DNA of 64,000 nucleotides. It comes from Nitrospina sp. (GTDB lineage: Bacteria > Nitrospinota > Nitrospinia > Nitrospinales > VA-1). The position numbers and the translations under genes were made by a program. The stretch lies in contig JABIYR010000158.1 of the NCBI GenBank assembly GCA_018702695.1, positions 2,541 to 66,540 on the forward strand, read 5' to 3'. Of the stretch, positions 14,902-63,708 are shown in pieces (position 1 is the stretch's first letter; every line of letters begins with the position of its first letter). Under the pieces are notes generated by a model. It was given only the letters and a program-made list of their open reading frames with translations. It was not told the DNA's origin and searched no databases.

Positions 14902-15842
14902 TGGCGACTTTTAGGATCAAGCGATTTAATCCGGAAAAACAACCGGAACCCTATTTTGAGGAATTTCAACTAGACATTCCTGCGGGCGCGACTCTTCTGG
15001 ATTGCATGAACCAGATTAAATGGACTCTCGATGGAAGCTTGACTTACCGAATGTCCTGCCGAAGTGCGATCTGCGGATCGTGTGCGATCAAGGCAAACGG
15101 TCATGCTATTTTGGCTTGCCAACGACAGGGTGCGCATTTGGTAGATAATAATGACACTGTCACGTTGGAACCATTGGGTAATATGAAGCCCATTAAAGAT
15201 TTGGTGGTCGACTTTACTCCGTTTTGGGACAAAATCAATAAGATCAAACCTTATCTTGAACCGAAAGAAGCACCGCCGGAAAAAGAACGACTGCAATCTC
15301 AGGAAGACTTTAAACTGATTGATGATTCCAGTACCTGCATCATGTGCGGGGCCTGCTATTCCGACTGTAATGTCCTAGAAGTGGATGACAATTTTCTCGG
15401 GCCTGCAGCGCTTGCCAAAGCTCAGAGGTTCATCAGTGATTCGCGCGACTCTCAAACTCTGGAACGGGTGAAAGAGATCAGTGAACCCGGCGGCATTTGG
15501 GATTGCACCCACTGCGGTGAATGTGTAGAGCGTTGCCCGAAACCGGCGCGTCCATTTGACCGAATCAAGGAAGTCATGACCGTTGCTTTGAAAGAAGGCG
15601 TACACAATAACAACGGAGCCCGACACGCGTTATCCTTTTTCAACTCGGTTAAAAGAAGCGGCAACCTGAATGAGAACAGGATTCCTGTTGAGTCGATGGG
15701 TTTTTTCAATATTCCCGGCTTGCTCAGTTTGCTACCGATCGGGTTGAGAATGTTTTTAAAAGGAAAAGTTCCGCCAGTCATTCATCATTCCATTGAAGAA
15801 GTGGATGATGTTAAACGAATTTTCAAGGAGTTGGATAAATGA
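14901..15842 (+). CDS. sdhB: succinate dehydrogenase / fumarate reductase iron-sulfur subunit (long form)
   Basis: 313 aa. Its ATG overlaps the sdhA TAA (TAATG). Cys clusters are CRSAICGSC...[12 protein letters not shown] and [13 protein letters not shown] ~70-aa C-terminal extension is present. Confidence 0.93.
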
Positions 15843-16717
15843 AGTTTGCCCTGTTTACCGGATGTGTTGCCAAAGGGGCGACTCGCGAATTGATGCTTTC
15901 CACCACCAAGGCCGCTGAAGGTCTGGGTTTTGAATTTATAGAAATGAAGAGCGCTTCCTGCTGTGGTGCTGGGGTGGTTTCAGAAAAAAATCCCTTGATT
16001 GCCGATGCACTCAATGCACGGTCATTTTCAATTGCTGAAAAACAAGGGTTGGATATTGTCACCATCTGCTCAACTTGCCAAGGCACATTGCGAAAAACCG
16101 AAGTTCACCTTAACGAAGATGCCGAATATAAAAAGAAGGTCAACGACATTCTCGAAGACGGGGGACATCAATATAGCGGTAAAACACGCATCAAACATTT
16201 TGCCAATATCCTCGCTACCGAAGAAGGCATGGCAAGGTTGAAAGAGCGCGTCAAACGACCTCTGACAGGGTTAAAAGTCGCCGCCTTTTACGGTTGTTAT
16301 GTTTTACGTCCTTCAGAAAATTCAGACTTTGAGAACCCTGATAACCCGACTGAGATGGAAGATATCTTTACCGCATTGGGTGCGACTCCGGTTTACTACC
16401 CTAGCCGCACTAAATGTTGCGGGTTCCCCATTGTCATGATGAATAAAAAAGCATCGTTAGAAATGTCTGGTAATGCCCTGCAAGATGCGATCGATAGTGG
16501 CGCGAATGTGATGGCGACGGGGTGTCCACTCTGTCATTTGAGCCTCGATTCTTATCAACCTGAAATCGAACTCCTACAAAAAACAAACAGCTCTCTCCCG
16601 GTTTTGCATTTGCCCCAACTGGTTGCCCTAGCACTGGGCTATTCCCCCGATGAGCTTGGCATGAACAAACACATCGTCTCCACTCTAAAAATTAACGAGA
16701 TTTTAGCCGCACACTAA
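15839..16717 (+). CDS. CCG-domain (HdrB-like) subunit, SdhE/MfrE-type third subunit of non-classical SDH/FRD
   Basis: 292 aa. It overlaps the sdhB stop by 4 nt (ATGA). Two cysteine-rich CCG motifs are present (SCCGAGV; KCCGFPIV) plus GCPLCH. No TM helices. Confidence 0.8.
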
Positions 16718-17037: not shown

Positions 17038-18579
17038 GTGGCAACTTCTTTCAAAAAACAAATTCTAGTCTTATTGACTGGCGTTGCTGTATTCAATCTC
17101 ATTCTTCTTCTCCCCCCTCCCGAAGGGTTGAGCGAGACTGGGCAACGCATGCTTGCTGTGACCCTGCTCATGGCGATATTGTGGATTGGCGAAGGCACTT
17201 CGTTAGCAGTGACGGCCCTTTTACCTTTGGTGTTGTTTCCGCTATTTGGTATCTTGCCGAGTAAGCTTGTCGCGCTCAATTACTCTAATCATCTTATCTT
17301 TTTATTTCTTGGCGGATTCATGATCGCTATGGCTATGGAAAAATGGAATTTCCATAAGCGTCTGGCATTGTGGATTATCTCTTTGGTGGGAACGGAACCG
17401 CAACGCATCATTTTGGGTTTCATGGTCGCAACGGCCTTTCTCTCTATGTGGATCTCCAATACGGCATCGACGATGATGATGCTCCCGGTTGCGATGGCGG
17501 TGGTGCGGCAAATTGCTCTCGATGCTTCTTTAAACGGTGAGAAAAATACTGTAACGCGTGAAACGATTGAGAAAGGGTTGGGTTTGGTGCTGATGCTGGG
17601 CCTTGCATACTCTGCCAGCATTGGCGGAGTGGGCACTCTCATTGGCACGGCACCGAATATTGTGTTTGCCGGGCTTTATAAAAATATGTTTCCCGATAAC
17701 CCTGAAATCTCATTTTTTGATTGGATGGTGCTGGCGATTCCTATCGTAATGGTTTTCATACCATTGGTATGGGTGTATTTATGTCGGTTCGTATCTCCTC
17801 TTCCGCTGAAAAATATTTCTGCTGGAAGCCATGAAATCATTCAGCGAGAATTGGAGGATCTGGGACCCATCAATCGAGCTGAAAAAATTGTGGCGATGGT
17901 TTTCTGCCTCACTGCATTTTTATGGATTTTTCGCCAACCTATTTCGATGGGAGTTTTTACCCTCCCCGGTTGGTCTGGTCTTTTTGAACAGGCAAAATAT
18001 TTACACGATTCGACCGTGGCCATGGCGATGGGTATCTTGCTGTGTCTAATTCCGGTGAATGGCACTCAAGGCATGGAACTGAATGGCAAGAGAGAGTGGT
18101 TTATTTTAGATTGGCAAACCGTGCAGTCAAAAACTCCGTGGGGAATCTTGATTCTTTTCGGCGGCGGTTTTGCGTTGGCATCTGGCTTTGGGGCGACGGG
18201 CCTTGATAATTGGATTGGCAGTAAGCTCACCCATCTAGCGGGCATGCCATTGTGGATGGTGGTGCTGAGTATTTGTCTGTCGGTGACATTTTTAACCGAA
18301 TTGACATCGAACACGGCGACCACAACGATGATATTGCCTATTCTTGCGATGGCGGCGGTCGCGGCGTCGGTGCACCCGTTATTGTTTATGATTCCAGCTA
18401 CGTTGTCTGCATCGTTTGCATTTATGTTGCCGGTAGCGACTCCGCCCAACGCCATTGTGTTTGGCAGTGGTTGGGTCAGCATTCCCAAAATGTCACGTGC
18501 GGGTTTGTTTCTCAATCTGTTAGGTGCAAGTATTGTGACAGGGGTTGTTTTGTTTTTGGTGGGTCGCCTGATGGCCTAA
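17038..18579 (+). CDS. DASS / SLC13-family sodium-coupled anion (di/tricarboxylate or sulfate) symporter
   Basis: 513 aa polytopic membrane protein with the duplicated SNT hairpin motifs (WISNTASTMMMLP and ELTSNTATTTMILP) characteristic of DASS transporters. Confidence 0.85.
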   Translation: MATSFKKQILVLLTGVAVFNLILLLPPPEGLSETGQRMLAVTLLMAILWIGEGTSLAVTALLPLVLFPLFGILPSKLVALNYSNHLIFLFLGGFMIAMAMEKWNFHKRLALWIISLVGTEPQRIILGFMVATAFLSMWISNTASTMMMLPVAMAVVRQIALDASLNGEKNTVTRETIEKGLGLVLMLGLAYSASIGGVGTLIGTAPNIVFAGLYKNMFPDNPEISFFDWMVLAIPIVMVFIPLVWVYLCRFVSPLPLKNISAGSHEIIQRELEDLGPINRAEKIVAMVFCLTAFLWIFRQPISMGVFTLPGWSGLFEQAKYLHDSTVAMAMGILLCLIPVNGTQGMELNGKREWFILDWQTVQSKTPWGILILFGGGFALASGFGATGLDNWIGSKLTHLAGMPLWMVVLSICLSVTFLTELTSNTATTTMILPILAMAAVAASVHPLLFMIPATLSASFAFMLPVATPPNAIVFGSGWVSIPKMSRAGLFLNLLGASIVTGVVLFLVGRLMA

Positions 18580-47389: not shown

Positions 47390-49003
47390 CTAATCCTCTT
47401 TCATTAGATTTTTAGCTTCTTTGATATCAATTTTTGCGGTGTGTCCATGTTTTTCAAGTAGGTGCAATAGGTTAGACCCATTGAGTAAAGTTATAGGCTT
47501 CCCATTCGCAAAACTATACGAATCTGCACCATAATCAGCGGTTGTTACAAGAATACCTTTGGTTGCACCTTCATTCATGATTGTGCCATATAGGTCGCGT
47601 ACTGCTGAGACTCCAACTGTATTGGTATAGCGTTTAGCCTGTATAACAATCTTGCCACCGCGGATTGGATCCGGATCAAAAGCGATAGCATCTACACCTC
47701 CATCAGATGATGCTTGAGTGACTTTTACTTCACCACCGTTTTGAGCAAATTCTTTTTCAAATATCTCTCGAACAAGATGCTCGAAATCTTCCCAATCCAT
47801 TGCGGCGAGGTTGGTGCTTTCATTCATGCCGTCAGCAACTTCATAATGGTCTGTGAAGCGTTTGTCTGATTTATCTAATTCCAGAATGGGTCGAACTGTG
47901 GTAATGGTACTTAACTTTGCGCTACCGACACCTTTTAGGGCTTTAAAACAAAGTTTAGGATCAATGTTAGCGAGGTTTATTTTAATGAATTCGGTTTTAG
48001 AGGCTTGAATCGATAGAATACACTTCGTTTCCTTATGCCCTGTTGCTGGATTTAATGCGGTGATAATGCCATTAAAGGTAATAGCAGCAATAACATCAAC
48101 AACATCAGCTTCGAATAACTCGTGAAGTGTTCTCAATGTTATTTGATAAATCGTAGAGTCAAATAATTTGCTTTGGTCTGATTGACTTAAAAATTTTTCA
48201 TCAAAGCTGTCTTTGCTTTTAATGTATTTGACCATTGTTCGAGCTGGTATGTTGTCCGGGCTGGGTAATTGGAAATCAACAAGAATCATTCCATTTGATT
48301 CATTATGCTGAACTTCAAAGTCTTTTGGGAAGCTATCTGGATATTCTGAATTATTGAGAACCATCTCACAGTACTCAACGATTGCTTCGGGGTCTTTCTT
48401 TTGATAGCGAGTCTTAAGTTCATCAACTTTTTGATTAAATGCGGTCCGTTTCTGTTCTGAAATAGTATGCTTGTTTAGCGTTTCCTCATTTTCCTTCTCG
48501 ATTTTGCCCTTAGATTTTTGCCACTTTTTCAATGCTTGCGAATATTCGAGTTCCTGTTGTTGGTTATGCTTTTTAGTGCCACCAAAGAGGGCTTTAAAAA
48601 ATGGGACTTTTGTCATGTATTCACTACGTTGTGGTTCTTTAGGTTTGCTTGCTAGCTTGGGAGAATTCGGTTTTTGAACTTTTAGTTTTTCCCAATCAAC
48701 AGCATCATTGATATCTAAGGTATGTGAAAGCAGGCCTTCTATTGCCTCAAGCGCAATTCTTGATTTAGTGGTCATCTCCTGAGCTTGTTCTTCTTTGTCT
48801 TTCTTTTCTTGAATTTCGACCTGCCGTGCCCACTTCTTTTCCCAAGCGTTAACTTGATTTTGAATTTTGCCGTGTAGCACTGAGGGGTCGCTTGCTGATA
48901 AGTGTCGTGTTAAATCTAAGCCTTTGTGGTACATTTCGGTCATGTAGCCGGAGTGATTTCCTTTGCTAGTATACTTGTCTTCGATCTCGCCTATTTCTAT
49001 CAC
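47390..49003 (-). CDS. Mrr-cat (restriction endonuclease, PD-(D/E)xK) domain protein with ~400-aa unknown N-terminal region
   Basis: 537 aa. The C-terminal ~130 aa (DWEDFEHLVREIF...SSDGGVDAIAF...IVIQAKRY...VRDLYGT...GILVTTADYG) matches the Mrr_cat pattern. The N-terminal part is Lys/Glu-rich coiled coil plus a globular domain. Confidence 0.8.
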   Translation of the reverse strand: MIEIGEIEDKYTSKGNHSGYMTEMYHKGLDLTRHLSASDPSVLHGKIQNQVNAWEKKWARQVEIQEKKDKEEQAQEMTTKSRIALEAIEGLLSHTLDINDAVDWEKLKVQKPNSPKLASKPKEPQRSEYMTKVPFFKALFGGTKKHNQQQELEYSQALKKWQKSKGKIEKENEETLNKHTISEQKRTAFNQKVDELKTRYQKKDPEAIVEYCEMVLNNSEYPDSFPKDFEVQHNESNGMILVDFQLPSPDNIPARTMVKYIKSKDSFDEKFLSQSDQSKLFDSTIYQITLRTLHELFEADVVDVIAAITFNGIITALNPATGHKETKCILSIQASKTEFIKINLANIDPKLCFKALKGVGSAKLSTITTVRPILELDKSDKRFTDHYEVADGMNESTNLAAMDWEDFEHLVREIFEKEFAQNGGEVKVTQASSDGGVDAIAFDPDPIRGGKIVIQAKRYTNTVGVSAVRDLYGTIMNEGATKGILVTTADYGADSYSFANGKPITLLNGSNLLHLLEKHGHTAKIDIKEAKNLMKED

Positions 49004-49069: not shown

Positions 49070-50599
49070 TCAGAACCAACTTTCTCGGTCTAAAGAGCGA
49101 TATTGGATTGCTTCTGCCACATGTTCTGACTGCACCGATTCGCATTCGGCCAGATCGGCGATGGTGCGGGCGACTTTTAGGATGCGGTCATGCGCTCTTG
49201 CGCTGAGGCCGAGTTTGTCGATGGCGAGTGCCATGATTTTTTTGGAGGCTTCATCGAGCTGGCAAAAGGTTTTCAGTTGGTGGGGATTCATATTAGCGTT
49301 GAAATTGTTTTCATCTTCTTTGTGAAAGCGTTTTAGTTGAATCGTTCGGGCCTGTTCGACTCGGTTGGCGATAGATTGGGAGCGTTCTCCGCCGGATTCA
49401 GACGATAGGTCTTTGTATTCCAGTGCTGGCACTTCGATATGTAAATCGATGCGGTCGAGCAGGGGGCCGGATATTTTCCCGACATATTTTTTGATGGTCA
49501 TTGGCGTGCATCCGCATTCGCGTTTAGGGTCGAACCGGTAACCACAGGGGCAGGGGTTCATCGCCGCGACTAGCATCAGGTTTGCCGGATAGGTGATGGA
49601 ACCCGCGGCGCGTGAGATGGAGACGGCACCGTCTTCTAGAGGTTGACGCAATACTTCCAATACATTTCTTTTGAATTCGGGCAATTCATCGAGAAATAGA
49701 ACGCCGTTATGCGCCATCGACACTTCTCCCGGCATGGGCACGCGCCCGCCGCCGATCAGCCCAGCATCGGAGATGGTGTGATGCGGGGAACGAAAGGGGC
49801 GTGAACTCAATAACCCTTTTTTCAGTTGACCGAGCACGCTGTGAATTTTGGTGGTGGTGATAGCCTCCCCCTGAGTCATGGAGGGTAAAATAGTCGGGAT
49901 GCGTTTCGCTAGCATCGACTTACCGCTACCCGGTGGGCCGATAAGTAGGATATTGTGCCCGCCAGAGGCGGCGATCTCTCAGGCGCGTTTGACATGGTGC
50001 TGGCCTTTGACATCGGTGAAATCTAATTCATGTTTGTTGGCAGAGGCATCTTGGCTTTTGGGTTTGGGGCTGACAGGTTGCAGTGCCAGATTACCGCATA
50101 AAAACTCAAGCGCCTGAGGCAAGGTGTCTATGGGATAAACGGGAATGCCTTCGATGATAGCAACCTCGGCGGCATTTTCACTGGGCAGAAGCACTCCCTC
50201 CATGCCATTTTCATGGGCCATAGCGGTGATAGACAATGCGCCACGAATGGGTTTGACTCGACCATCGAGAGAGAGTTCACCGAGAATCACCATTTTCTTC
50301 AGGCGATCATTGTCGATCATGCCACTGGCGCAAAGTATACCTATTGCGATGGGCAGGTCGAAAGCAGAGCCTTCTTTGCGAATATCGGCAGGTGCTAAGT
50401 TGATAGTGATTTTTCTTACTGGCAGGGCCAGTTGTGTGTTGCGGATGGCGGCACTGACACGATCACTGCTTTCTTTAACGGCGGCATCGGGCAGACCCAC
50501 GATAGACATGCCGGGTAGCCCTTGTGCTAGGTTGACTTCGACTTCAACGGGGTAACCGTTTATGCCTAAAACCGCTCCACTATGAACGAGTGCGACCAA
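49070..50599 (-). pseudogene. comM: comM/yifB Mg-chelatase-like AAA+ ATPase interrupted by one in-frame TGA
   Basis: The two tracked ORFs (49979..50599 and 49070..49915) are in the same frame. My translation across the junction reads ...[38 protein letters not shown], with the stop codon at 49979-49981 where homologues have Leu. Confidence 0.8.
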
Positions 50600-52695: not shown

Positions 52696-54261
52696 GTGAT
52701 ATTTTTTAATGTAAGCCACGCTGAGTTTCGTTTAAACAATATCAAAAATTTCTCCTTTAGCTTAACACACCTCTTGACCCGTCCTTCTACAACTTTAAAG
52801 CGTTCTATTTGGTCAGCGCTATTTTGTTGGAGCGCAGTTTCTATTATTCTGCACGCCTTTTATATCCAGACTCCTTTTGTGAGTATGGAGTATGTTTTTG
52901 CGCAGGCCACACAAAACCTTCTCAGCTCTGAAAATAATTTGGCCCATTACTGGTCCATGCAAGCCAACCCCTTGGGTTATGTCTGGGTCTCCACGCTGAT
53001 TCACTTTCTTCTGGGAGAGCCGAGTGGCTTCTGGAGTTATCGACTTGCATCGCTCTTAGGTTTAGTGGCGATTTTGGGTGCTGGGGCTATGGTTGCTTCC
53101 ACTCTAAAGTCAGACTGCCGACGAGCGTTTCATTTATGGTGCGCGTTGGTGACGTTTTCTCCCTTGATATGGGTGTTCTCGGGGCGGGCGACCGCAGATG
53201 TTTTGCCAATGGGTTTGTTAGGGTTGAGCTTGGCTCTGGTCTATAAAAATGAAGCCAGAACCAGTGGCTTGGCTTCAATATTGTTTTTATTTGCATCCAT
53301 TGTTAAATACCACGCTTTGTTGATGGCCCCCGGGTTCATCTATATTTTCTGGTATCAGAGTCAGAATAATGGAGAGTGGATCAAGAGATGCGGACAGTTT
53401 TTTCTATTGCCTCTATTGGGGTTCCTTTTATATTTGTGGGGTATATACAATCAGTACGGTTTTTTTCTAGTTGCAGAGACTCACTCGCAAACTCATAAAT
53501 TCGAACCGGCTAATTTCCTCAAAACATTTTCTTTGTATGCCGGTTATCTGGGCATATTGCTGGGGCCTGTTGCCTGGGTCAGCCTTCTCAATGTCCGCAA
53601 AAACTGGCCTGGAAAATGGCTGATTCTCATCGGATTTGGGCTGGGGTTCGGGTTCTGGGTGGACTCATTAGAAACCATGGGGGAGATGAACTATGGGCCT
53701 TTTGACTGGATACTCAATCGCTCGATGTTATTTTTGGTGAAAAGTATGGGAGCCATTGTTTTTGGATTTCTTATTTTGGATTGCATTGTAGAAGCCAGAA
53801 AACATAAGAATGCGGTGGCGGGGTTTGTTTTGACCGTATGCATTCCTTTTTTGTTAGTTTGTTCTGCCAGTCGTCCTGCTCAGCGATATCTGATTTTCCT
53901 AATCCCTTTGATTTTCTATTATCTGGTTTTTTATCGCATGCAGGGGCACAAAATTTATAGGGTGGTTCTTGGTTGGGGCACAGTGGGGATTTTTGTCTTA
54001 GCCAATTTATTTGCGGTAAATTATCAAGTTGCGCAAGCTCGTGCCGCCGATAATATGGCTCACTGGCTGATTGAAAATAAGTTGATCGAAGAAACTCTAC
54101 CGGGGAGCATTAATACCCATAGTGGGCAATATTTTATCCCATTTATAACCACCCAAAAAACGCGGACGGTTTTGCAGGGTTCGGGCGATATTGCAACGGC
54201 CTTGCATGCGGAAAAAGTGGTGGTTTTTGGCAGAACTCTGAAAACTTATTACCTGAATTAG
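52696..54261 (+). CDS. GT-C fold membrane glycosyltransferase (family 39/83-like); start codon uncertain
   Basis: 521-aa polytopic membrane ORF from GTG, with an ArnT/PMT_2-like hydrophobic pattern. It is divergent from the TPR-GT-C gene. Confidence 0.55.
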   Translation: MIFFNVSHAEFRLNNIKNFSFSLTHLLTRPSTTLKRSIWSALFCWSAVSIILHAFYIQTPFVSMEYVFAQATQNLLSSENNLAHYWSMQANPLGYVWVSTLIHFLLGEPSGFWSYRLASLLGLVAILGAGAMVASTLKSDCRRAFHLWCALVTFSPLIWVFSGRATADVLPMGLLGLSLALVYKNEARTSGLASILFLFASIVKYHALLMAPGFIYIFWYQSQNNGEWIKRCGQFFLLPLLGFLLYLWGIYNQYGFFLVAETHSQTHKFEPANFLKTFSLYAGYLGILLGPVAWVSLLNVRKNWPGKWLILIGFGLGFGFWVDSLETMGEMNYGPFDWILNRSMLFLVKSMGAIVFGFLILDCIVEARKHKNAVAGFVLTVCIPFLLVCSASRPAQRYLIFLIPLIFYYLVFYRMQGHKIYRVVLGWGTVGIFVLANLFAVNYQVAQARAADNMAHWLIENKLIEETLPGSINTHSGQYFIPFITTQKTRTVLQGSGDIATALHAEKVVVFGRTLKTYYLN

Positions 54262-54444: not shown

Positions 54445-56697
54445 ATGCCAATAAAACGTCCTAAACATTTGCTGGTGATCGGGGGAGGGGTGTTCCAAGT
54501 TCCTGCTATCAAGACTGCCAAATCGATGGGCTTAAAAGTTGCGGTGACGGATTACAACCCGGAAGCAGAAGGGATGCTTTTGGCCGATTACCCGGTAGAG
54601 GTCAGCACTCGCAATATCAACCTGACCGTTAATATCGCTAAGCAGTTTCATCAAACCTGTCCTCTCGATGGGGTGATAACGGTGGGGACCGATGCCTCTC
54701 AAACTGTCGCGGCAGTTGCTAATGCTTTGAACCTGCCGGGAATTCCCTTTGAAGTGGCTGAACGAGCCACCGATAAAATCAAGATGCGTCAGGTGTTGAA
54801 AGAGAAGGGCGTGCCCGTTCCCGAATTTCGTCCTATCTGGACATTGGACGAAGGACGGTCAGCAGTCAATGAGATGACCCTGCCTCTGGTTATAAAACCC
54901 TGCGATAATATGGGCGCACGCGGGGTGAGAAAAATCGAAAGTCTGGACGATCTGATCCCTGCTTTTCGTGAGGCGAAAGAAGCTTCCATCAGCGGAAAAT
55001 TAATTCTTGAGTCGTTCATGGATGGGCCAGAGTTGAGTTTGGATGCATTGGTGCATGAGGACGATATTCATATTACGGGAGTGGCAGATCGAATCATCGA
55101 ACGCGCGCCTTATTTTGTTGAGATCGGACACACGCTCCCTTCAGCTTTGCCAGCCGATCAACAGGCGGGGGCCGTTGCCGTTTTCAAGCAAGCCATAATT
55201 GCATTGGGAATAGATATTGGGGCGGCGAAGGGGGATATCAAGATAACGCCTGATGGCCCTAAAATTGTTGAGATTGCCGCTCGTTTGAGTGGCGGCTGGA
55301 TGTCTGCTTATACCTACCCTCTCTCTACCGGAGTCAATCTTTACAAAGCGGCTATTCAGATTGCTTTGGGTGAAGAGCCAGGCGATTTGACCGCCAAAAC
55401 CTCTTTGGTTGCGGTCGAGCGGTCGTTATTGCCAACGCCGGGAAAAATCCTCTCTATTAGAGGGGTGGAAGAGGCCCGCAAGATCAAAGGGGTCAAAGAA
55501 ATTATTCTTATGAAAGAAGCCGGGGATATGGCAGAAGAACCCCGCAGTAATATGGGCAAAGTGGGTTATGTCATCACGGTGGGAAAAACTCGCGCCGAAG
55601 CCCTACGCATCAATGACCTGGCTCATCAAACTTTGAAAATCGAAATTGGTGCTTCCAGTGATTTGACCTGGGACATCATCCGTAATAATGCGCGCAAGAA
55701 ATTTTATATTGCCTGCAAAGCCTGCACGGTTTGCGATGGGTTGGAATGCGCGGGCAAAGTCCCCGGCATAGGTGGCATCGGGTCAGGCAGTGCCTTCACC
55801 GAAAACCTGACGGCATTGGCTCGTTATCAGGTCAACCTGAGAACCATTCATAACGTGAAAGCCCCCGATACTTCCGTGGAGTTGTTTGGGCACAAACTGG
55901 CTTTGCCAGTTCTGGCGGCACCGATCACCGGTATGGAAACTAATTTAGCAGGCGGTATGGATGAAAGGGCGTACGCCGATGCCATTCTGGATGGTTGTCT
56001 GGAAAGCGGTACGCTGGGAATGGTTGGCGATGGAGCCAGCCCGCAAAAATATTTGATCGGCTTGGAAGCCATTAAAAAACGCGGTGGGTTGGGAATTCCT
56101 ATCTTCAAGCCAAGGGAATACAACCTCGATATCATCAAGCGGTTCAAAGCCGCTGAAGATGCAGGGGCTCTTGCTGTTGGCATTGACATCGATGCGGCTT
56201 CATTTAAAACCATGACGCTCAAAGGTCAGGCCGTTGGCCCTAAAAGTATCTCTGAATTGCAGGAGTTGAAATCGCATTTGAAAGTGCCTTTTATATTAAA
56301 AGGCATTATGAATGCGGAGTCGGCGTTGGCGGCGATAGAAGCCGGAGCCGATGCCATTGTTGTTTCTAATCATGGCGGAAGAGTGATGGACCATATGCCT
56401 GGAACCGCAGAAGTGCTTCCTGAAATTGTCCACGCTGTGGCAGGGCGAGTTAAAGTGCTTGTTGACGGGGGCGTTCGTGAAGGCGTTGACATACTCAAAA
56501 TGTTAGCATTGGGAGCCGATGCAGTCATGATTGGTAGACCTGTTTGCATTGCGGCGTTTGGGGCTGGGCAGGAAGGGGTTTCCTTTTATTTACGGGAGAA
56601 AATGAACGAGTTGAAGAAAGCCATGATTCTTACAGGCTGTGGCTCCATCCCGAATATTGATCCTTCCATTATTTTCCGTAAAAAGGAGGATCGATAA
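54445..56697 (+). CDS. fusion protein: ATP-grasp carboxylate ligase domain (aa ~1-402) plus FMN-dependent alpha-hydroxy-acid dehydrogenase/oxidase domain (aa ~405-750)
   Basis: The N-terminal half has the pre-ATP-grasp Rossmann-like start HLLVIGGG and the ATP-grasp core PLVIKPCDNMGARGV...ESFMDGPELSLDALV...VEIAARLSGG. The linker is CKACTVCDGLEC. The C-terminal half has the FMN_dh signature VVSNHGGRVMD, DGGVREGVDILKMLALGADAVMIGRP. Confidence 0.8.
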   Translation: MPIKRPKHLLVIGGGVFQVPAIKTAKSMGLKVAVTDYNPEAEGMLLADYPVEVSTRNINLTVNIAKQFHQTCPLDGVITVGTDASQTVAAVANALNLPGIPFEVAERATDKIKMRQVLKEKGVPVPEFRPIWTLDEGRSAVNEMTLPLVIKPCDNMGARGVRKIESLDDLIPAFREAKEASISGKLILESFMDGPELSLDALVHEDDIHITGVADRIIERAPYFVEIGHTLPSALPADQQAGAVAVFKQAIIALGIDIGAAKGDIKITPDGPKIVEIAARLSGGWMSAYTYPLSTGVNLYKAAIQIALGEEPGDLTAKTSLVAVERSLLPTPGKILSIRGVEEARKIKGVKEIILMKEAGDMAEEPRSNMGKVGYVITVGKTRAEALRINDLAHQTLKIEIGASSDLTWDIIRNNARKKFYIACKACTVCDGLECAGKVPGIGGIGSGSAFTENLTALARYQVNLRTIHNVKAPDTSVELFGHKLALPVLAAPITGMETNLAGGMDERAYADAILDGCLESGTLGMVGDGASPQKYLIGLEAIKKRGGLGIPIFKPREYNLDIIKRFKAAEDAGALAVGIDIDAASFKTMTLKGQAVGPKSISELQELKSHLKVPFILKGIMNAESALAAIEAGADAIVVSNHGGRVMDHMPGTAEVLPEIVHAVAGRVKVLVDGGVREGVDILKMLALGADAVMIGRPVCIAAFGAGQEGVSFYLREKMNELKKAMILTGCGSIPNIDPSIIFRKKEDR

Positions 56698-57489
56698 ATG
56701 AAATCAAAAAAAACAGCGTTGAAGGTCGTACCGGTTAAACCCGGTCAAAACCTGCGGTCGGAACTCTTGTTATTGAAAAAACAGTTTGGCGCTTGCGGGT
56801 TAAAACTATCTACGGAAGATGCCGCCATGAGCCTAGAGCAGATTGCTTTTTGGGCAGAGTCCGCAGGCAATGCCCTACCGGCGATGGTGAAAATAGGCGG
56901 CCCGAATGCCCGGAACGATATCAAGCAACTCCTTCCTATGCATATTGATGGATTGATTGCCCCTATGGTGGAATCGCCTTATGGCCTAGAAAATTTTATT
57001 GCCGCTGTGCGTGATTTCACCACCCCGATGCAGTTTGAGCGATTGAAAAAGCAGATTAATATTGAAACGGAAACAGCGGTTCGGCAGTTAGATTCGATTC
57101 TTTCAGCTCCAGAAGCAAAATACATTGATGAGATCACCATTGGCTGTAGTGACCTGTCAGAGTCGATGAAGCAACCGCGGTGGGATGCAAGCTTTATGGC
57201 TCTGGTTGTGCAGGTGGTTAAAAAAATTCAGAAAAATAATATTTCCGTTTCAGTCGGCGGGGGCATCACCCCTGATACCATAGAAGGGTTGTTGGAACAA
57301 GTTCGGCCCGATAAGTTCAATACGCGGGTTATTACCTTTAAGGTGGAGCCAGACCGAGACTACCGCTTAGCGGTTCAATCGGCACTGCGCTTTGAAATAC
57401 TGATGCTTGAGCACGATTCCTGCCATAATTTTATCTCCCGCGATGAAGAAAAATTCCGCATTAAAGAGTTGAAAAAAAGATTGAAATAA
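56698..57489 (+). CDS. HpcH/HpaI aldolase / citrate-lyase-beta (CitE)-like TIM-barrel lyase
   Basis: 263 aa, with its ATG immediately after the upstream TAA. Blocks VKIGGPNARNDIKQLLPMHIDGLIAPMVESPYGLENF and INIETETAVRQLDSIL...ITIGCSDLSESM fit the HpcH/CitE pattern (V-R/K-I/V-N...D-G-hh-h-P-K/M-V-E; IET; G-x-x-DL). Confidence 0.6.
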   Translation: MKSKKTALKVVPVKPGQNLRSELLLLKKQFGACGLKLSTEDAAMSLEQIAFWAESAGNALPAMVKIGGPNARNDIKQLLPMHIDGLIAPMVESPYGLENFIAAVRDFTTPMQFERLKKQINIETETAVRQLDSILSAPEAKYIDEITIGCSDLSESMKQPRWDASFMALVVQVVKKIQKNNISVSVGGGITPDTIEGLLEQVRPDKFNTRVITFKVEPDRDYRLAVQSALRFEILMLEHDSCHNFISRDEEKFRIKELKKRLK

Positions 57490-57560: not shown

Positions 57561-57588
57561 TTGACAAAAAAATGAAATGTCTTACAAT
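57561..57588 (+). promoter_or_regulatory. near-consensus sigma70 promoter for aclBA
   Basis: TTGACA (57561-57566), 16-nt spacer, TACAAT (57583-57588). It lies ~145 nt upstream of the aclB ATG, which is preceded by AGGAG. Confidence 0.55.
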
Positions 57589-57732: not shown

Positions 57733-59001
57733 ATGCAGATAACTGGCATGCTTTGGGGGCGTAAATTATTGGACCTAGTAGAATTTCCCCATTCTGAAGT
57801 CCGGGGTCCTGAACTCAGTGTTGATGAGATCAAAGACATGATCAAACGACACGGTATGGTATTCATTAAACCTTTGTTTAAAGGCGGCGTGGGTAAAAAA
57901 GGCAAGGCTGGTTTGATGGGTCGGGTCGATAATATTACTGATGCTCTGAAAGAAAAAGAACGTCTTTATTTTGCGGAACATGTAGATGGATTCAGTAAGG
58001 TCAAGTCTGATGGCGTGACCTATGAAGGGGCTGTTCCTGCTGAGTACGAAGTCTATTTTTCTATTTCAGAAAGCACCGAACATCGTTGTCCAATAATGAC
58101 CGTCACTCATCATGGTGGGGTGGATATTGAAGAATTGCCGGAAGATAAAATTAAGGTCGTGCCTTTTGATTCCTTAACCGGGCTGAAAGCGTATCACGTC
58201 TCGAACGCATTGATGGAACTGGGTGCGCCTCCTCAGGTGATCAGCCCATTGGTTCAGAATCTGCCTAAACTTTGGGATCTGTACAATAACTACGGCATGT
58301 TGATGCTGGAGTTGAACCCCATTCGCATGCAACCTGGCAAAGGCGGACGCTTGACACCCGTAGCCTGTGACTTCAAATGTGCATTCGATCAAGATGATCC
58401 GGCTTGGAAGCGTTTGCATCTGCCGGAGCATCTATTTGCTTCTGACTATTCAGAGTTTGAGCAGGAGATCAATCAGCTTCGCACCTATCAAGGGCAGAGT
58501 GACGTATTTGTTATGAATGATAAGGGAACCATCACCGCTCCGACTTTTGGCGGCGGTGCCAACGCCATGGTTACTGAATTGTTGGGTGAAGATGCAACCA
58601 TCTCTTCTGATTTTGGTGGCAACCCCCCTTATGAAAAGATGCATGATATCTCCAGAATCAGTTTTAAATATTGGTTGCCTCAGTCCAATGTGCTGTTCAT
58701 CATTGGCGGTAAAGCTAATAATACGGATATTTACGAAACATTCCGAGCCATGGGTGATGGGTTGCGTGACTTCTTTCAGACACACGGGCCAACTCCTTTG
58801 TTTGTCGTGGTGGGACGAGGCGGTCCCAATGTCATCCGCGGAATGAATTATTTGCAGGAGATTCTCGATTCTTTAGGGCTTCCTTACCGTTTCTTTGGGC
58901 ACGATAGTGCGATGTCTGAAGTCATCAATTACACTCTGGCTGTGAACGAGTGGATGAATAACGGTGGTAAGGATGAGATTAAAGCAAAACTTAAAATTTG
59001 A
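57733..59001 (+). CDS. aclB: ATP-citrate lyase beta (small) subunit, SucC-like ATP-grasp
   Basis: 422 aa. It has the ATP-grasp_2 signature FIKPLFKGGVGKKGKAGLMG and a C-terminal citrate-binding/ligase-CoA-like region. It is directly followed by the large subunit. Confidence 0.85.
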   Translation: MQITGMLWGRKLLDLVEFPHSEVRGPELSVDEIKDMIKRHGMVFIKPLFKGGVGKKGKAGLMGRVDNITDALKEKERLYFAEHVDGFSKVKSDGVTYEGAVPAEYEVYFSISESTEHRCPIMTVTHHGGVDIEELPEDKIKVVPFDSLTGLKAYHVSNALMELGAPPQVISPLVQNLPKLWDLYNNYGMLMLELNPIRMQPGKGGRLTPVACDFKCAFDQDDPAWKRLHLPEHLFASDYSEFEQEINQLRTYQGQSDVFVMNDKGTITAPTFGGGANAMVTELLGEDATISSDFGGNPPYEKMHDISRISFKYWLPQSNVLFIIGGKANNTDIYETFRAMGDGLRDFFQTHGPTPLFVVVGRGGPNVIRGMNYLQEILDSLGLPYRFFGHDSAMSEVINYTLAVNEWMNNGGKDEIKAKLKI

Positions 59002-59098
59002 AGTGACTGTCTCTGTCGGGCATGGCTTGACCGGGGGCAGGGCAAACTCATGAATTTAAAAATATCAATTAAAAGTATTTTCCGTTTTGGAGGTTTGA

Positions 59099-61813
59099 AT
59101 GCATAAGCAAGGTGTGGAAAAATTCCCCTTTTACTGCGGCATTAATTCCTTGTCTGAACTGGCAACTAAAGATGACAGGGTCGTGGTTTTGAATATCCTG
59201 GGTAAAGAAAGCTCAGGCGTAACCCCCATCAGTAATGATTATTCTGGTGGCAATATTGTGTTTGGAACCGGGCCGGGTAAATCCGGTAAATCATTGGTGA
59301 CAAAATCGGGGAAGATTCCGGTTTATAACTCAATCAAAGAAGGTCTCGAAGCCGGTCATAAATTTAATACGGTTGTGGTCTATCTTCCACCTTCCGGGGT
59401 GAAAGATGGTATCGCTGAAGCCGTCCGTGAAAATCCGGATCTGACCAAAGCTATTATTCTTACGGAGAAAGTGTCGGTCAAAGATTCTCGTGTTATGCGA
59501 GCGATTTGTCAGGCCAATGGCGTTGACTTGTTCGGCGGCAATTGTCTGGGACTGGCAGATGCTTGGAACCACGTTCGCCTTGGCGGCGCGCTGGGCGGCA
59601 ATGCACCGGAAGAGTCTCTGGTAAAGGGAACGGTCGCATTGTTCTCCAACTCGGGCAACTTCACCACCACTATCGCGGTTTATCTGACCACCGCAGGCTG
59701 GGGCACGACGACCTCGGTTTCCAGTGGTAAAGACGTTTATATTCAATACGGTGCCAAAGAGTTCTTGCACGCGTTTGATAACGATGAACGTTCAAAAGTG
59801 GCGGTCATGTACAGCGAACCGGGCGGATATTATGAACGCGGACTGAAATCTGATAAACCTATTGTTGCCTGTGTCGTAGGGCGTTGGAAAGCAAGGTTGA
59901 GCAAGGCTTGTGGCCATGCTGGGTCCTTGGCGGGTTCTGGCGACGATGCTTTGGCGAAAGAACAATGGTTCATGGATTATTTTGGCGTGGACGGTGTTTA
60001 CACCCCACAAAAACCCATTTTCTCGAAGAAGGGTGCGTTGGTGACCAACATCGCGCATATTCCGGAAGCGGTTTCCAAAGTCATGGAACTCAATGGCCTG
60101 AAGCCTGATTTTGAACCAAAAGGAACCTTGTCCTTAAAAAGCTGGTTCGGCAATAATCAGGGGCTTGCTTTGCCGCCTGAACTAGATATTCCGACTGTTG
60201 AAGCCGCAAGTCCTTATAACGAGCAGATTGAAGCTCTGAACAAAATGGTTGGCGTTCAACATCGTCGAGAAAACCTCAAGGATGCCAGTGGCGCGTCCAT
60301 GATGGACCCTAAAACGCAGGTTTCTAAAATCCATAACACTTCGATTCTCGACGCTTCTGTCAAGTCTTTTGAATCCAATTTGGTCTTTGCTTTGACACGG
60401 GTTTACCCCTGTGACTATGGCGAAAAAATTGCCAATCTTGTGCTGAATATGTATGTCAATCAGCACGGTCAGGCGACCCTAGCGGCGGCTCAAGCGGCGC
60501 GAGAAAATGGCAATTCTCCCAATACGGTTGTAGCGTCTGCGGTGGCCATTTGTGGGAAAAAAATGGTGCAAAAGGCGATGGACTCATCGAGAGCACTTCT
60601 GGAGTTGTTCCAGTTTAGCAAGATGGACGACCCCTGCGAGAAGTTTGATTACTCCGAGCAACTGAAAGAGGCGGCTAACCATAAGGCTGTACTGCTAGCA
60701 GACGGTGAAGACCCTTGCGCTGAAAAACTTGCCGCATGTCTCAATAAAGCCGGACACTCTGTATTCGTCCAGTTTGTGCAAGACTTGGCAAAAGCCAATG
60801 GTGGCAAACTTTCTACCGATGCGCTGTTCGCCGCGGTATGGGTGACTCTTGGTTGGAGTGCGTTGCGAGGTAAAAAGATTTCTAAAGATACTCTCGTACG
60901 TTTGCCTTGGTACTCACGCATCTATAGCACCATCGTCGGTGTTTCTGCTCCGGCTGAACGACATACCGAAGATAGTATTGCCGGTGTTAAGCTGGAAGAG
61001 TTGATTCCCAATTATAGTTTCACGAAAACGGCATTTGTCACATTGTTGGGGCGTCAGCCTTCCGAGTCAGAGCTTTACGAGTTCCAGGTACTGCTCGGAC
61101 TGATTATCACCAACGGGCCGGGCACGATCTCAGCTCAGGGTTGTAAAGGCGCAGTCAGTGCAGATGGGCCAGAACAGCCACAGCGGGTTCAAGTGAACAA
61201 AGCTTTTATCGGCTTTCTCACACATACCGGTTTCGCACATGGCGGAAACGGTTATGAAGCGGCGGCTTTCTTGTTGGAAAACTTTAAAGATAAGGGCCTC
61301 AAAAATGCCGCTGATACCGGGCATGGGCTAGATCTTGATGCCATGGCATTAGAAGTGGCGAATAAGTATTCTGATTATAAAAAGAAAGAGAAAGCCATTG
61401 GCAATCTTGATTATGCCAAATTGCCTTGTGTTAACCACCCTGTGTTTAAAGGGAAAGATGTTAACTACGATCCACGAGAAGTTTTTGTACGAGACCTGTT
61501 TAAAGAAAAAGGCATCAATAATGTGTTCCTTGATTTTTATCACAGCCTTGTCGAAGCTTTGTTTAAAACTAAAGTCAGCAAAAATGTTTATTGCGTAAAC
61601 ATTGACGCGGTCATTGCGGTCATTCTGCTCAAAGTGGTCTGGTCTGACTTCAGTGGTGGCAACATGAAAGAAGAGGATATTGAGTCTGCTAGTTTTGCAA
61701 CCTTCTTGTTTGGCAGGATGATAGGTTGTGCGGCAGAAATTGATGACCACACTTCTCGTGGTAAAAATATGGATACTCGAACCCCGGCCAGCAAAGTTCG
61801 CTGGGTGGGTTGA
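59099..61813 (+). CDS. aclA: ATP-citrate lyase alpha (large) subunit, unusually long: SucD-like CoA-binding/phosphohistidine domain, ~300-aa extra region, then citrate-synthase-like citryl-CoA lyase domain
   Basis: 904 aa, RBS GGAGG. Phosphohistidine loop is ACGHAGSLAGSG (His273). CS-like catalytic blocks are GFAHGGNG (aa ~711-717) and VNHPVFKGKDVNYDPRE (aa ~778-794), plus EIDDH near the C-terminus. Confidence 0.85.
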   Translation: MHKQGVEKFPFYCGINSLSELATKDDRVVVLNILGKESSGVTPISNDYSGGNIVFGTGPGKSGKSLVTKSGKIPVYNSIKEGLEAGHKFNTVVVYLPPSGVKDGIAEAVRENPDLTKAIILTEKVSVKDSRVMRAICQANGVDLFGGNCLGLADAWNHVRLGGALGGNAPEESLVKGTVALFSNSGNFTTTIAVYLTTAGWGTTTSVSSGKDVYIQYGAKEFLHAFDNDERSKVAVMYSEPGGYYERGLKSDKPIVACVVGRWKARLSKACGHAGSLAGSGDDALAKEQWFMDYFGVDGVYTPQKPIFSKKGALVTNIAHIPEAVSKVMELNGLKPDFEPKGTLSLKSWFGNNQGLALPPELDIPTVEAASPYNEQIEALNKMVGVQHRRENLKDASGASMMDPKTQVSKIHNTSILDASVKSFESNLVFALTRVYPCDYGEKIANLVLNMYVNQHGQATLAAAQAARENGNSPNTVVASAVAICGKKMVQKAMDSSRALLELFQFSKMDDPCEKFDYSEQLKEAANHKAVLLADGEDPCAEKLAACLNKAGHSVFVQFVQDLAKANGGKLSTDALFAAVWVTLGWSALRGKKISKDTLVRLPWYSRIYSTIVGVSAPAERHTEDSIAGVKLEELIPNYSFTKTAFVTLLGRQPSESELYEFQVLLGLIITNGPGTISAQGCKGAVSADGPEQPQRVQVNKAFIGFLTHTGFAHGGNGYEAAAFLLENFKDKGLKNAADTGHGLDLDAMALEVANKYSDYKKKEKAIGNLDYAKLPCVNHPVFKGKDVNYDPREVFVRDLFKEKGINNVFLDFYHSLVEALFKTKVSKNVYCVNIDAVIAVILLKVVWSDFSGGNMKEEDIESASFATFLFGRMIGCAAEIDDHTSRGKNMDTRTPASKVRWVG

Positions 61814-61879
61814 CGCTCATCATTGCCCTTTGTTCCTGTTTAGGGTGATGATTGTTGAGTGAGTAAAAATAAAGAAAAA

Positions 61880-61912
61880 GCCTTCATCCCCTTCTGGGGT
61901 GAAGGCTTTTTT
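61880..61912 (+). terminator. rho-independent terminator after aclA
   Basis: GCCTTCATCCCC-ttct-GGGGTGAAGGC (one bulge), followed by TTTTTT. Confidence 0.8.
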
Positions 61913-61994: not shown

Positions 61995-62381
61995 ATGGGA
62001 GAAGATAAGAGAGGTTTTCCACGTTCGTTGGTTGAAATGGTCGTTAAGATTCAGGTTGATAACAAATGGGTTGAATGTGAGGTTCTTGATCTTTCGGTCG
62101 AAGGCATCTCATTGGAAGTGGGGCAGTCGCTTGATATGGGCGCACAAATTGACCTGGAACTGGAGCATGGAGAATCAATGAAGAAAAATCAGGTACGAGC
62201 TGAGGTGCTTCGGTGTGACAGCAACCCAGGAGAAAGCAACCCAGAAAGATATCATGTGGTGGCAAGGCTGATCGAACCAAATGATGAATACCTAATGGGT
62301 GCTTTAGCATTGGTTCATGGTGATGGCCCGAAGCAAGACCGACGAAACACTGTATACGGAAAGAGAGATGATGGAAGATAA
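61995..62381 (+). CDS. PilZ-domain (c-di-GMP binding) protein
   Basis: 128 aa with RxxxR (RGFPR) at aa 6-10 and DxSxxG (DLSVEG) about 23 residues later. RBS is GGGGAG. Confidence 0.8.
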   Translation: MGEDKRGFPRSLVEMVVKIQVDNKWVECEVLDLSVEGISLEVGQSLDMGAQIDLELEHGESMKKNQVRAEVLRCDSNPGESNPERYHVVARLIEPNDEYLMGALALVHGDGPKQDRRNTVYGKRDDGR

Positions 62382-62793
62382 TACCCTGTTGCAAGAAGTT
62401 GGTGGCAAGCCCATTTTGGAGAAGGTACATAAACTTTTTTACGATAAACTTTACGAGCATCCTTGGCTCAAGAAATTTTTCCTGCATATTGATCAAAAAC
62501 TCATTGAAAACCAGCAGACCGATTTCATGATTTCCAATATGGGTGGGGGAAAAATATACTCCGGCGGTATGCCCAAGAATGTTCATCGGCATATGTATAT
62601 CACAGAAGAGCTGTTTGACCTGCGAACCCAGATTTTGAGAGAATCTATCCTCGCCTGTGGTGTGCGAGAAGAGTTGGCTGACCGATGGATTCGCATCGAC
62701 TCGGCGTTTAAACATTCTCTGGTCAAACCCAGTGTTGATAAATGTGAAAAACGTTACTTCACCGATGAAATTTTAAATTTCCCCAAACCTTAA
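62368..62793 (+). CDS. truncated haemoglobin (bacterial-like globin, trHb family)
   Basis: The tracked ORF starts at 62317. I prefer ATGATG at 62368, after AAGAGAG. The sequence LLQEVGGKPILEKVHKLFYDKLYEHPWLKKFF...QTDFMISNMGGGKIYSGG...HRHMYITEELFD fits trHb helices B-E-F, including the proximal His context. Confidence 0.75.
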   Translation: MMEDNTLLQEVGGKPILEKVHKLFYDKLYEHPWLKKFFLHIDQKLIENQQTDFMISNMGGGKIYSGGMPKNVHRHMYITEELFDLRTQILRESILACGVREELADRWIRIDSAFKHSLVKPSVDKCEKRYFTDEILNFPKP

Positions 62794-62961: not shown

Positions 62962-63708
62962 GTGCAGGCACAGGCTGGAGTTTTAAATCTTCCCAGAAAA
63001 CATAGTTTGGTTCAGGTCTATACCTTTGAAGACTTGCCATTGATCACCATGAATGTGGCGAGAATTGGGGCGCAAACCCCCGGCATGGCTTCAGAAATTG
63101 CAGGCGATGAAAATCATTTTGCCACCGTCGGGTTCGGCCCGATGACTTGGATCTGGCTCACACCCGATAAACCTGTGCCCGGAGGCTTCCGTGCATTTGA
63201 TGAAACCGAGGTTGCAGGGCAAGACGTACCTGAAACAGAAGGGGATATCTTGCTTTACTTTTCTTCCGACCATGCTGATTTAAATCGTGAGCTGGCAAAC
63301 CAAGTCGGTCAACTGTTTGGCAATGATGGCGAGCTTATAGAAGAGGTGGTGGCAGAACATTGTAGCCAACCAACACTGAGCGATAATTTCGCAGAAAATG
63401 TTTTGATTGATGCTTCCACTAATCTTGATACGGAACAAAGTAGTTTTGTGCTCACCCAACACTTTCAAGGGGAGGAGGACATTCCTGCAAACCATTATCA
63501 AACCAGCTTCACCTGCAAAACCGACCGTTATACCCTGACCTATAGCAATAACCCCGATGAACTGGAGGCGCATAGCGATAACGTCTCTCGCCCACCGAAA
63601 TCACGCGGCTTGTTTATCATCCCCTCCCTCGACCTGTTGACCAGCCTGAGAATGGGCGGTATCCGCATGGGCTCTCTTGCTATCAACGCTAAATGGAAAG
63701 GGCACTAG
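62962..63708 (+). CDS. divergent DyP-type peroxidase-like protein (short, canonical GxxDG motif not evident)
   Basis: 248 aa from GTG with a strong RBS (AAGGAGG). N-terminal QAGVL..., mid FVLTQHFQ and C-terminal GLFIIPSLDLLTSL resemble E. coli YfeX blocks (QSGIL, YVFVQRWEH, GYYFAPSLDKLMAL) as I recall them. Confidence 0.45.
   Translation: MQAQAGVLNLPRKHSLVQVYTFEDLPLITMNVARIGAQTPGMASEIAGDENHFATVGFGPMTWIWLTPDKPVPGGFRAFDETEVAGQDVPETEGDILLYFSSDHADLNRELANQVGQLFGNDGELIEEVVAEHCSQPTLSDNFAENVLIDASTNLDTEQSSFVLTQHFQGEEDIPANHYQTSFTCKTDRYTLTYSNNPDELEAHSDNVSRPPKSRGLFIIPSLDLLTSLRMGGIRMGSLAINAKWKGH

Follow-up and report, generated by a model that had tools for sequence, protein, structure and literature searches.

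The chief nitrite oxidisers of the ocean are bacteria of the Nitrospina type, which fix CO2 via the reductive tricarboxylic acid (rTCA) cycle. A type II ATP-citrate lyase (ACL) was reportedly postulated by Hugler and Sievert in 2011 for Magnetococcus and for the Riftia/Tevnia symbiont. The role proposed for this type is the cleavage of citrate within the rTCA cycle. In Nitrospina gracilis, a gene pair of this kind was described in the genome paper as the predicted ACL, of "very low similarity" to genuine ACLs; the authors assumed it to be functional, there being no other candidate citrate-cleaving enzyme in this organism (PMC3578206). In Magnetococcus, citrate cleavage was measured, with type II genes only (PMC6783814). 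The core of the type I enzyme is a homotetramer of four citryl-CoA lyase (CCL) modules, also called citrate synthase homology (CSH) modules (PMC10115795), and the Planctomycetes forms of the enzyme, split or fused, were described as phylogenetic intermediates between the citryl-CoA synthetase (CCS)/CCL system and type II ACL (Thiel et al. 2017, PMC5459899). Considered here is a two-gene locus related to these systems and situated in a stretch of 64,000 nucleotides (hereinafter, the window) from Nitrospina sp. (GenBank assembly GCA_018702695.1, contig JABIYR010000158.1, positions 2,541 to 66,540 of the forward strand).

The locus comprises a gene of an AclB/CcsA-like small subunit (57733–59001, forward strand), an open reading frame (ORF) of 422 aa, and a gene of the large subunit (59099–61813, forward strand), an ORF of 904 aa, exactly where an earlier reading of the letters of the window (the first-pass annotation) had placed two adjacent genes of these lengths. 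Very probably, the two genes form an operon encoding the type II ACL of a marine Nitrospinaceae bacterium, and the large subunit of this enzyme owes its extra length mainly to a tandem lyase module whose first copy is inactive. All the parts for the ACL reaction are encoded: an ATP-grasp/citrate-binding subunit, a CoA-binding/phosphohistidine domain, and one intact CCL module.

The solved type I AclA chains comprise 617 residues (Chlorobium, 6hxj_B) or 616–631 residues (Methanothrix, 6hxi_B), so the excess of ~290–300 aa over the characterised AclA, which the first-pass annotation gave, is real; the standard AclA is shorter than the 904-aa protein and harbors one CCL module. Equally accurate were the distance of ~440 aa between the phosphohistidine loop and the citrate synthase (CS)-like blocks (441 aa from His273 to His714) and the count of 631 aa following His273. 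The excess consists of a linker of ~95 aa (aa 306–401) and a full second CCL module (aa 402–617). The extra region, previously placed at about aa 340–640, thus exists within other boundaries, aa 306–617. The first-pass annotation also recognised in it a degenerate copy of the CS-like region: the segment quoted there (LVLNMY...AICG) is aa 447–486 (nt 60437–60556), i.e., the helices of the first module leading to the position of the HGG motif. This likeness was confirmed and extended to the whole module (hhalign E 1e-17), and the partial helical segment supposed there gave way to an entire CCL module, inactive and preceded by a conserved linker.

The first module (copy 1, 60302–60949, forward strand) was delineated by profile–profile alignment, AlphaFold2 (AF2) modeling, and Foldseek. 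In hhalign comparisons, aa 402–622 aligned end-to-end with aa 618–884 of the second module (copy 2) over 219–221 columns, with a probability of 98–99% and E from 4e-13 to 1e-17. The shuffle-controlled run was well above chance level, yielding a probability of 99.07% (E 1e-17, score 95.6), compared with a maximum of 0.31% and a score of 8 in 20 column-shuffled controls; the remaining pairs of segments of the large subunit gave probabilities <1%. When a profile of copy 1 (aa 402–622) was run against 177,635 distinct PDB sequences, the sole match was Ccl of Hydrogenobacter thermophilus (6hxp_A), in register from the N-terminus and with the SAHGG of the enzyme opposite GKKMV of copy 1.

Structure prediction of the insert, as proposed in the first-pass annotation, gave a CS/CCL-like module. 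The AF2 model of aa 402–622 alone is an 11-helix domain (predicted local distance difference test, pLDDT, 90; predicted template modeling score, pTM, 0.86), and the top 50 of 50 Foldseek matches of this model in the PDB were CCL, the CCL-core modules of ACL, or CS, the best being 6hxp (template modeling score, TM, 0.67, 4.2 A, 227 columns). In BLASTP, the single CCL module of a 694-aa Planctomycetes form of the enzyme (P0138) aligned both to aa 412–595, collinearly with everything upstream, and to aa 627–901 (E 2e-44). The difference between the 904-aa and 694-aa forms is a clean indel of one whole module (~216 aa). Taken together, these five independent lines (hhalign, the PDB profile search, AF2/Foldseek, BLASTP with P0138, and the one-module indel) show that copy 1 is a second lyase module, one that arose through tandem duplication. 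A Pfam search with aa 304–630 alone returned nothing significant, the duplication being visible only by profile–profile comparison. The combination of the linker and the inactive second lyase module explains the failure of sequence models on the 904-aa protein.

The lyase chemistry can be assigned to copy 2 (CS-homology module, aa 618–904, 60950–61813, forward strand). It contains the CS-like blocks pointed out in the first-pass annotation, GFAHGGNG (aa 711–718) and NHPVFKG (aa 779–785) followed by DPRE (aa 791–794), and its residues H714, H780, D791-P-R793-E, D836, R873, R887, and R894 are all invariant. A copy-2 profile matched H. thermophilus Ccl (6hxp_A, E 3e-10) and, more weakly, Chlorobium CCL cores and citrate synthases. 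In the former alignment, the HGG, GH(R/P)V, DPR, and NVD motifs coincide, which places H714, H780, R793, and D836 at catalytic positions. Residues H491 and D543 of Chlorobium AclA (6HXJ) were used to verify AclA in a genome survey (PMC13147460); they correspond to H780 and D836, i.e., copy 2 possesses the catalytic His and Asp of ACL.

The catalytic His and Asp of ACL are not found as a set in copy 1. Here, H714 of the HGG motif is represented by K488/M489, the segment with H780 (NHPVF) is deleted, D791-P-R793 became D538-P-C540, and R873 became T611; the counterpart of D836, D574, is kept in Nitrospinota and not in Variovorax and Geobacter. In the 11 diverse members examined, the HGG position of copy 1 is never occupied by a histidine. 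At the same time, the sequence of copy 1 is constrained. The pairwise dN/dS (omega) against the closest loci was 0.021 for aa 1–305, 0.062 for the linker (aa 306–401), 0.055 for copy 1 (aa 402–617), and 0.024 for copy 2 (aa 618–904), these values being rough since dS is near saturation; the non-synonymous rate of copy 1 is about twice that of the catalytic parts. Since copy 1 is confidently folded and evolves under purifying selection, it is a maintained pseudo-enzyme domain and not a decaying spacer.

The unusual length and the blank left by Pfam across the middle region could by themselves suggest an assembly or sequencing artefact fusing two genes, or an AclA interrupted by unrelated or mobile DNA. 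This explanation is extremely improbable: a length of 899–914 aa recurs across several phyla, in independent genomes and metagenomes that number in the hundreds and include closed chromosomes; conservation extends to M1 and the C-terminus; all segments have omega values well below 1; and the middle region shares homology with the C-terminal module and hence is not foreign. Fusion of two genes by a sequencing error, named in the first-pass annotation as an outcome that would overturn its interpretation, was rejected on the grounds of the length conservation over many genomes and of omega <1 throughout.

The architecture is indeed widespread. A homolog search over 5.8 billion proteins retrieved hundreds of homologs of 899–914 aa with 100% query coverage, the nearest of them 88–92% identical to the large subunit; among the homologs with a named source, identity was 77–79% for Nitrospinaceae, ~70% for Nitrospina, and 65–68% for Thermodesulfobacteriota/"Deltaproteobacteria". 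In a genome scan with one genome per species, at least 555 genomes contained a relative, and the best matches (91–92%) were from marine metagenome-assembled genomes of Nitrospina/Nitrospinales, including closed chromosomes. In 79 of 80 loci, the gene directly 5' of that of the large subunit is the small-subunit gene, and both the gene pair and the 904-aa-type length are kept across Nitrospinota, Thermodesulfobacteriota, Chromatiales, Geobacter, and Burkholderiales. In public databases, the large subunit is labeled as "CoA-binding protein", "succinyl-CoA synthetase alpha subunit", "citrate/2-methylcitrate synthase", or "hypothetical protein"; the label "ATP-citrate lyase" is absent from the source names listed for the homologs.

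The 422-aa subunit displays an ATP-grasp fold (Pfam ATP-grasp_2, 46.8 bits at a cutoff of 29.5) and the ACL-type citrate-binding domain (Citrate_bind, 55.4 bits at a cutoff of 26.8). Its best solved relative is the large subunit of the H. thermophilus CCS, CcsA (6hxq_B, E 1.4e-29), followed by subunit 1 of the Methanothrix ACL (2e-21), human ACLY (6e-14), and Chlorobium AclB (7e-9). G296, N329, T331, and R362 of the small subunit align with the identical G309, N346, T348, and R379 of ACLY, reportedly its citrate-binding positions (Sun et al. 2010). In the large subunit, aa 1–305 (59099–60013, forward strand) form the CoA-binding and phosphohistidine domains similar to the succinyl-CoA synthetase (SCS) alpha subunit and CcsB, with Pfam CoA_binding and Succ_CoA_lig above cutoff. 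The best solved relative of this part is CcsB (6hxq_A, E 8e-27, or 2e-33 with the family profile), with AclA at 8e-12. As claimed in the first-pass annotation, the phosphohistidine loop GHAGS with His273 was found at aa 272–276, and G272, H273, A274, and G275 are invariant in the family.

The linker (aa 306–401, 60014–60301, forward strand) that joins these domains to copy 1 is family-specific and strongly conserved, with many invariant columns (e.g., P372-Y373 and S397-G-A-S400). It matched none of the Pfam families or solved structures, and its pLDDT is low (below 50) over aa 342–398. Still, it is shared, in collinear fashion, by the shorter single-module relatives, i.e., P0138 and the fragmentary P0147 (Planctomycetota) and P0200.

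Both subunits are closer to Hydrogenobacter CcsA/CcsB (E 1e-29 and 8e-27) than to the Chlorobium proteins (7e-9 and 8e-12), so the picture of a Chlorobium-type AclA with an insertion, implied by the first-pass annotation, does not hold; the enzyme has a CCS/CCL-like ancestry. The other suggestion of that annotation, a type II ACL, fared better. Primers published for the large subunit of type II ACL, acl2F1/acl2R1, translate to VAKEEWF and NGFEAIA (PMC3522073). Their counterparts are aa 286–291 (AKEQWF) and aa 717–723 (NGYEAAA) of the 904-aa protein, the family pattern being KE(E/Q)WF and NG(F/Y)EA. On a Chromatiales homolog (L080, 61% identical), the primers match with two mismatches each, and the predicted product of 1318 bp runs through the linker and copy 1 into the start of copy 2. 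The class assignment hence builds on the primer match and on the ~70% identity of the Nitrospina homologs, with Magnetococcus and Endoriftia compared by description only; a search with the Variovorax homolog, aimed at the named Magnetococcus/Endoriftia proteins, returned Burkholderiales only. To judge from these similarities, the locus is an ordinary member of the named type II ACL family, which is biochemically uncharacterised in the searchable literature. The organisation of the large subunit, in which the linker is followed by a dead and then a live CCL copy, is provisionally regarded as a new addition: no description of tandem dead and live lyase modules was found in the searchable literature, most subscription papers being outside the search.

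In the proposed mechanism, the 422-aa subunit and aa 1–305 of the large subunit would act as a CCS-like ligase converting ATP, citrate, and CoA into citryl-CoA via phospho-His273. Copy 2 would then cleave citryl-CoA into acetyl-CoA and oxaloacetate, a step that would close the rTCA cycle in this organism.

Several points weigh against the interpretation of the locus as an rTCA-type ACL with a duplicated lyase module. No assay of any member of the family was found in the searchable literature; therefore, we infer its activity and its substrate, citrate, as well as its role in the rTCA cycle of this organism. The scores of copy 2 are low: the NCBIfam citryl-CoA lyase model gives E 3e-13 and 49.6 bits at a cutoff of 212, and Pfam Citrate_synt (PF00285) gives 21.3 bits at a cutoff of 27, over a part of the model only. 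For human ACLY, the very status of the CCL/CSH module as the catalytic site is disputed (PMC10115795). The full-length AF2 model is of mediocre quality (pLDDT 68), a shallow alignment having made its N-terminal half poor. The omega values are rough, as stated above. The oligomer proposed below for copy 1 is likewise what we infer by analogy.

The phylogenetic distribution weighs in the same direction. The ~907-aa architecture and the gene pair are common in organisms without the rTCA cycle, including Geobacter metallireducens and aerobic Burkholderiales, e.g., Variovorax, Cupriavidus necator, Polaromonas, Acidovorax, Comamonas, and Ralstonia. In Burkholderiales, the pair often adjoins tricarboxylate-uptake genes. 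Thus, its neighbors in C. necator (locus L081, 10862–13203) are a stand-alone 260-aa gene of the Citrate_synt family (Ccl-like), an AMP-forming ligase, two TctC binding proteins, and an IclR regulator, and those in Variovorax (locus L083, 10774–12084) are a major facilitator superfamily (MFS) transporter and a class II aldolase. These neighbors suggest a catabolic use of tricarboxylates or organic acids outside the rTCA cycle. The family is, accordingly, not limited to a few autotrophs, the hosts mentioned in the first-pass annotation; since many heterotrophs carry the enzyme, it is in itself no marker of rTCA autotrophy, and it could accept other hydroxy-acids. In the case of G. metallireducens, a metabolic model assigns both ACL and the rTCA cycle (PMC3998878).

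In an alternative explanation, the same ligase–lyase would serve a purpose other than citrate cleavage for CO2 fixation, either with another physiological substrate or in another direction: it might catabolise imported citrate or a different tricarboxylate or hydroxy-acid, or its function might be anaplerotic or the supply of acetyl-CoA. Besides its presence in aerobic heterotrophs and Calvin–Benson–Bassham autotrophs (e.g., Variovorax, C. necator, Polaromonas, and Ralstonia) and in G. metallireducens, this possibility draws on the organic-acid-type neighbors in C. necator and Variovorax and on the lack of biochemical characterisation in the searchable literature. It is nevertheless rather improbable. 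The rTCA cycle of Nitrospina needs a citrate-cleaving enzyme, and the pair is the only candidate for it (PMC3578206); the citrate cleavage measured in Magnetococcus was accompanied by type II genes only (PMC6783814); the citrate-binding domain and the four citrate-contact positions are conserved; and the window also encodes a fumarate reductase/succinate dehydrogenase and a di/tricarboxylate transporter. Moreover, a heterotroph catabolising citrate would be using the ACL reaction all the same.

The role of copy 1 may lie in the assembly of the enzyme. With two CCL-fold domains per chain, a dimer of large subunits could rebuild the four-domain core known from type I ACL. The resulting alpha2-beta2 enzyme would have two ligase arms and as many active lyase sites, and copy 1 would be a structural pseudo-protomer in it. 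Such a pseudo-tetrameric core, made of two chains instead of four, is proposed tentatively and by analogy, and doubts about it prevail. The main alternative to a scaffold is that copy 1 is a regulatory module that binds a ligand (e.g., CoA, acetyl-CoA, or oxaloacetate) and acts allosterically on the ligase arm. For human ACLY, one school holds the CSH module to be allosteric, with CoA bound non-productively (PMC10115795), and the strong constraint on copy 1 and some invariant polar residues in it (R468, P474-N475, and D538-P539, retained in most members) would be in keeping with ligand binding. However, the substrate-contact residues of CS/CCL are all lost from copy 1 (the two histidines and the equivalents of R793 and R873), the segment of the second histidine is deleted, and D574 is not conserved in Variovorax and Geobacter. 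An allosteric function is, on this evidence, unlikely.

The signals flanking the gene pair are those given in the first-pass annotation. Ahead of the pair, a putative sigma-70-like promoter (TTGACA-16 nt-TACAAT, 57561–57588, forward strand) matches the consensus at 11 of 12 positions; this near-consensus site is the best in the scanned region and lies 145 nt 5' of the start codon of the small subunit. Behind the pair, the strong terminator noted earlier was found as a pattern match at 61874–61912 (forward strand): a putative intrinsic-terminator-like hairpin with a 17-bp stem, a 5-nt loop, and a T-run, which begins 61 nt past the stop codon of the large subunit. Both ORFs are preceded by good Shine–Dalgarno ribosome-binding sites (GGAGG/AGGAG).

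Just 5' of the ACL genes (54445–57489, forward strand), there is a 750-aa fusion ORF followed by a 263-aa ORF without a gap. The halves of the former resemble an ATP-grasp L-amino-acid ligase (LAL_C2, ATP-grasp_4) and an FMN-dependent alpha-hydroxyacid dehydrogenase (FMN_dh, E 4e-68), and the latter is an HpcH/HpaI/CitE-like aldolase-lyase; a CitE-like lyase beside ACL is a curious neighbor. This pair of ORFs stands 5' of the ACL genes here and in ~11 of ~36 Nitrospinales-type loci and in no other phyla. On the 3' side, a PilZ-domain ORF (61995–62381, forward strand) overlaps an ORF of a truncated bacterial globin (62317–62793, forward strand) by 65 nt, so the true start of the globin may be further downstream; a weakly DyP-peroxidase-N-like ORF (62962–63708) comes after it. 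Only the closest relatives (loci L002 and L024) share the PilZ/globin/DyP-like trio 3' of the ACL genes.

Elsewhere in the window, a TCA-related context is provided by the flavoprotein of fumarate reductase/succinate dehydrogenase (13192–14901, forward strand), with two further ORFs at 14901–16717, and by a di/tricarboxylate transporter of the DASS/CitMHS type (17038–18579, forward strand). A Mg-chelatase-like gene of the ComM/YifB type (49070–50599, reverse strand) is apparently split into two ORFs, 49979–50599 with the ChlI N-terminal part and 49070–49915 with the Mg_chelatase and C-terminal parts; a frameshift, a pseudogene, or an error in sequencing may lie behind the split. An Mrr_cat restriction-endonuclease domain stands at the C-terminus of a 537-aa protein (47390–49003, reverse strand), and a 521-aa ORF (52696–54261, forward strand) has zero Pfam matches.

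As regards the significance of the locus, the enzyme closing the rTCA cycle of Nitrospina has so far been only a prediction (PMC3578206). The public labels of the large subunit differ from ACL, so automated surveys of ACL genes and of the rTCA cycle are likely to miss the enzyme; conversely, surveys may over-read the family as a marker of autotrophy, given the many heterotrophs carrying it. The module boundaries provide exact construct limits and mutation targets for the first biochemistry and structure of a type II ACL, and the duplication offers a concrete, testable hypothesis of the core assembly. Having one copy with the chemistry and one without it, the protein also adds to the debate on whether the CSH module of ACL is catalytic or structural/allosteric (PMC10115795). 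If the proposal is true, the two-chain core would be a quaternary solution absent from the solved ACLs and an independent example of the core of a metabolic enzyme rebuilt by duplication and pseudo-enzyme formation, and the series from the single-module Planctomycetes form to the tandem form would record the remodeling of the citrate-cleaving machinery of the reverse Krebs cycle.

The enzyme can be compared with several known systems. From CS, it differs by its ligase part; the CS/CCL helical fold is common to both copies, and the His/His/Asp chemistry is common to CS and copy 2. Neither the full CS architecture nor a score above the Pfam threshold (21.3 vs. 27 bits) was found. The notion of CS itself as a tandem of two CCL units was considered and dropped: the alignments revealed one CCL-like unit into which ~85 aa are inserted internally, and no tandem repeat. 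The ~540-column Foldseek alignments of CS with the full-length model lack aligned ranges and hence are not interpretable.

Type I ACL (Chlorobium limicola AclB/AclA, 6hxj; Methanothrix, 6hxi; human ACLY) shares the domain order and the conserved catalytic His and Asp, and type I enzymes were the best whole-chain structural matches in Foldseek, a ranking that was the only use made of the full-length model. Nevertheless, AclA of this type is ~610 aa long with a single CCL module, and in sequence the type I proteins are far less similar (E 8e-12 and 7e-9); neither this length, nor the single module, nor AclA/AclB as the closest relatives was found here. The nearest solved relatives of all the catalytic parts, and of copy 1 as well, are Hydrogenobacter CcsA/CcsB and Ccl (6hxq, 6hxp). 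That system has three separate genes and two enzymes, whereas here the ccsB and ccl parts are fused via the ~95-aa linker and the ccl part is duplicated; the separate ccsA, ccsB, and ccl of Aquificaceae and Leptospirillum are replaced by an arrangement with one 904-aa ORF.

The fused ACL of Planctomycetes (P0138, 694 aa; P0147) has the same CcsB-like N-terminus, linker, and type of catalytic CCL module, and it shares with the protein from the window 638 collinear positions and the motifs TNGPGTISAQ, HGGNG, and HPVF...DPRE. It has one CCL module, as opposed to the extra module of ~216 aa in the protein from the window. Finally, type II ACL, postulated for Magnetococcus marinus (Mmc1_3638/3639), Ca. 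Endoriftia persephone, and other tubeworm symbionts, is likewise encoded by two adjacent genes with a very low similarity to type I, and the pair from the window does not differ from it in kind.

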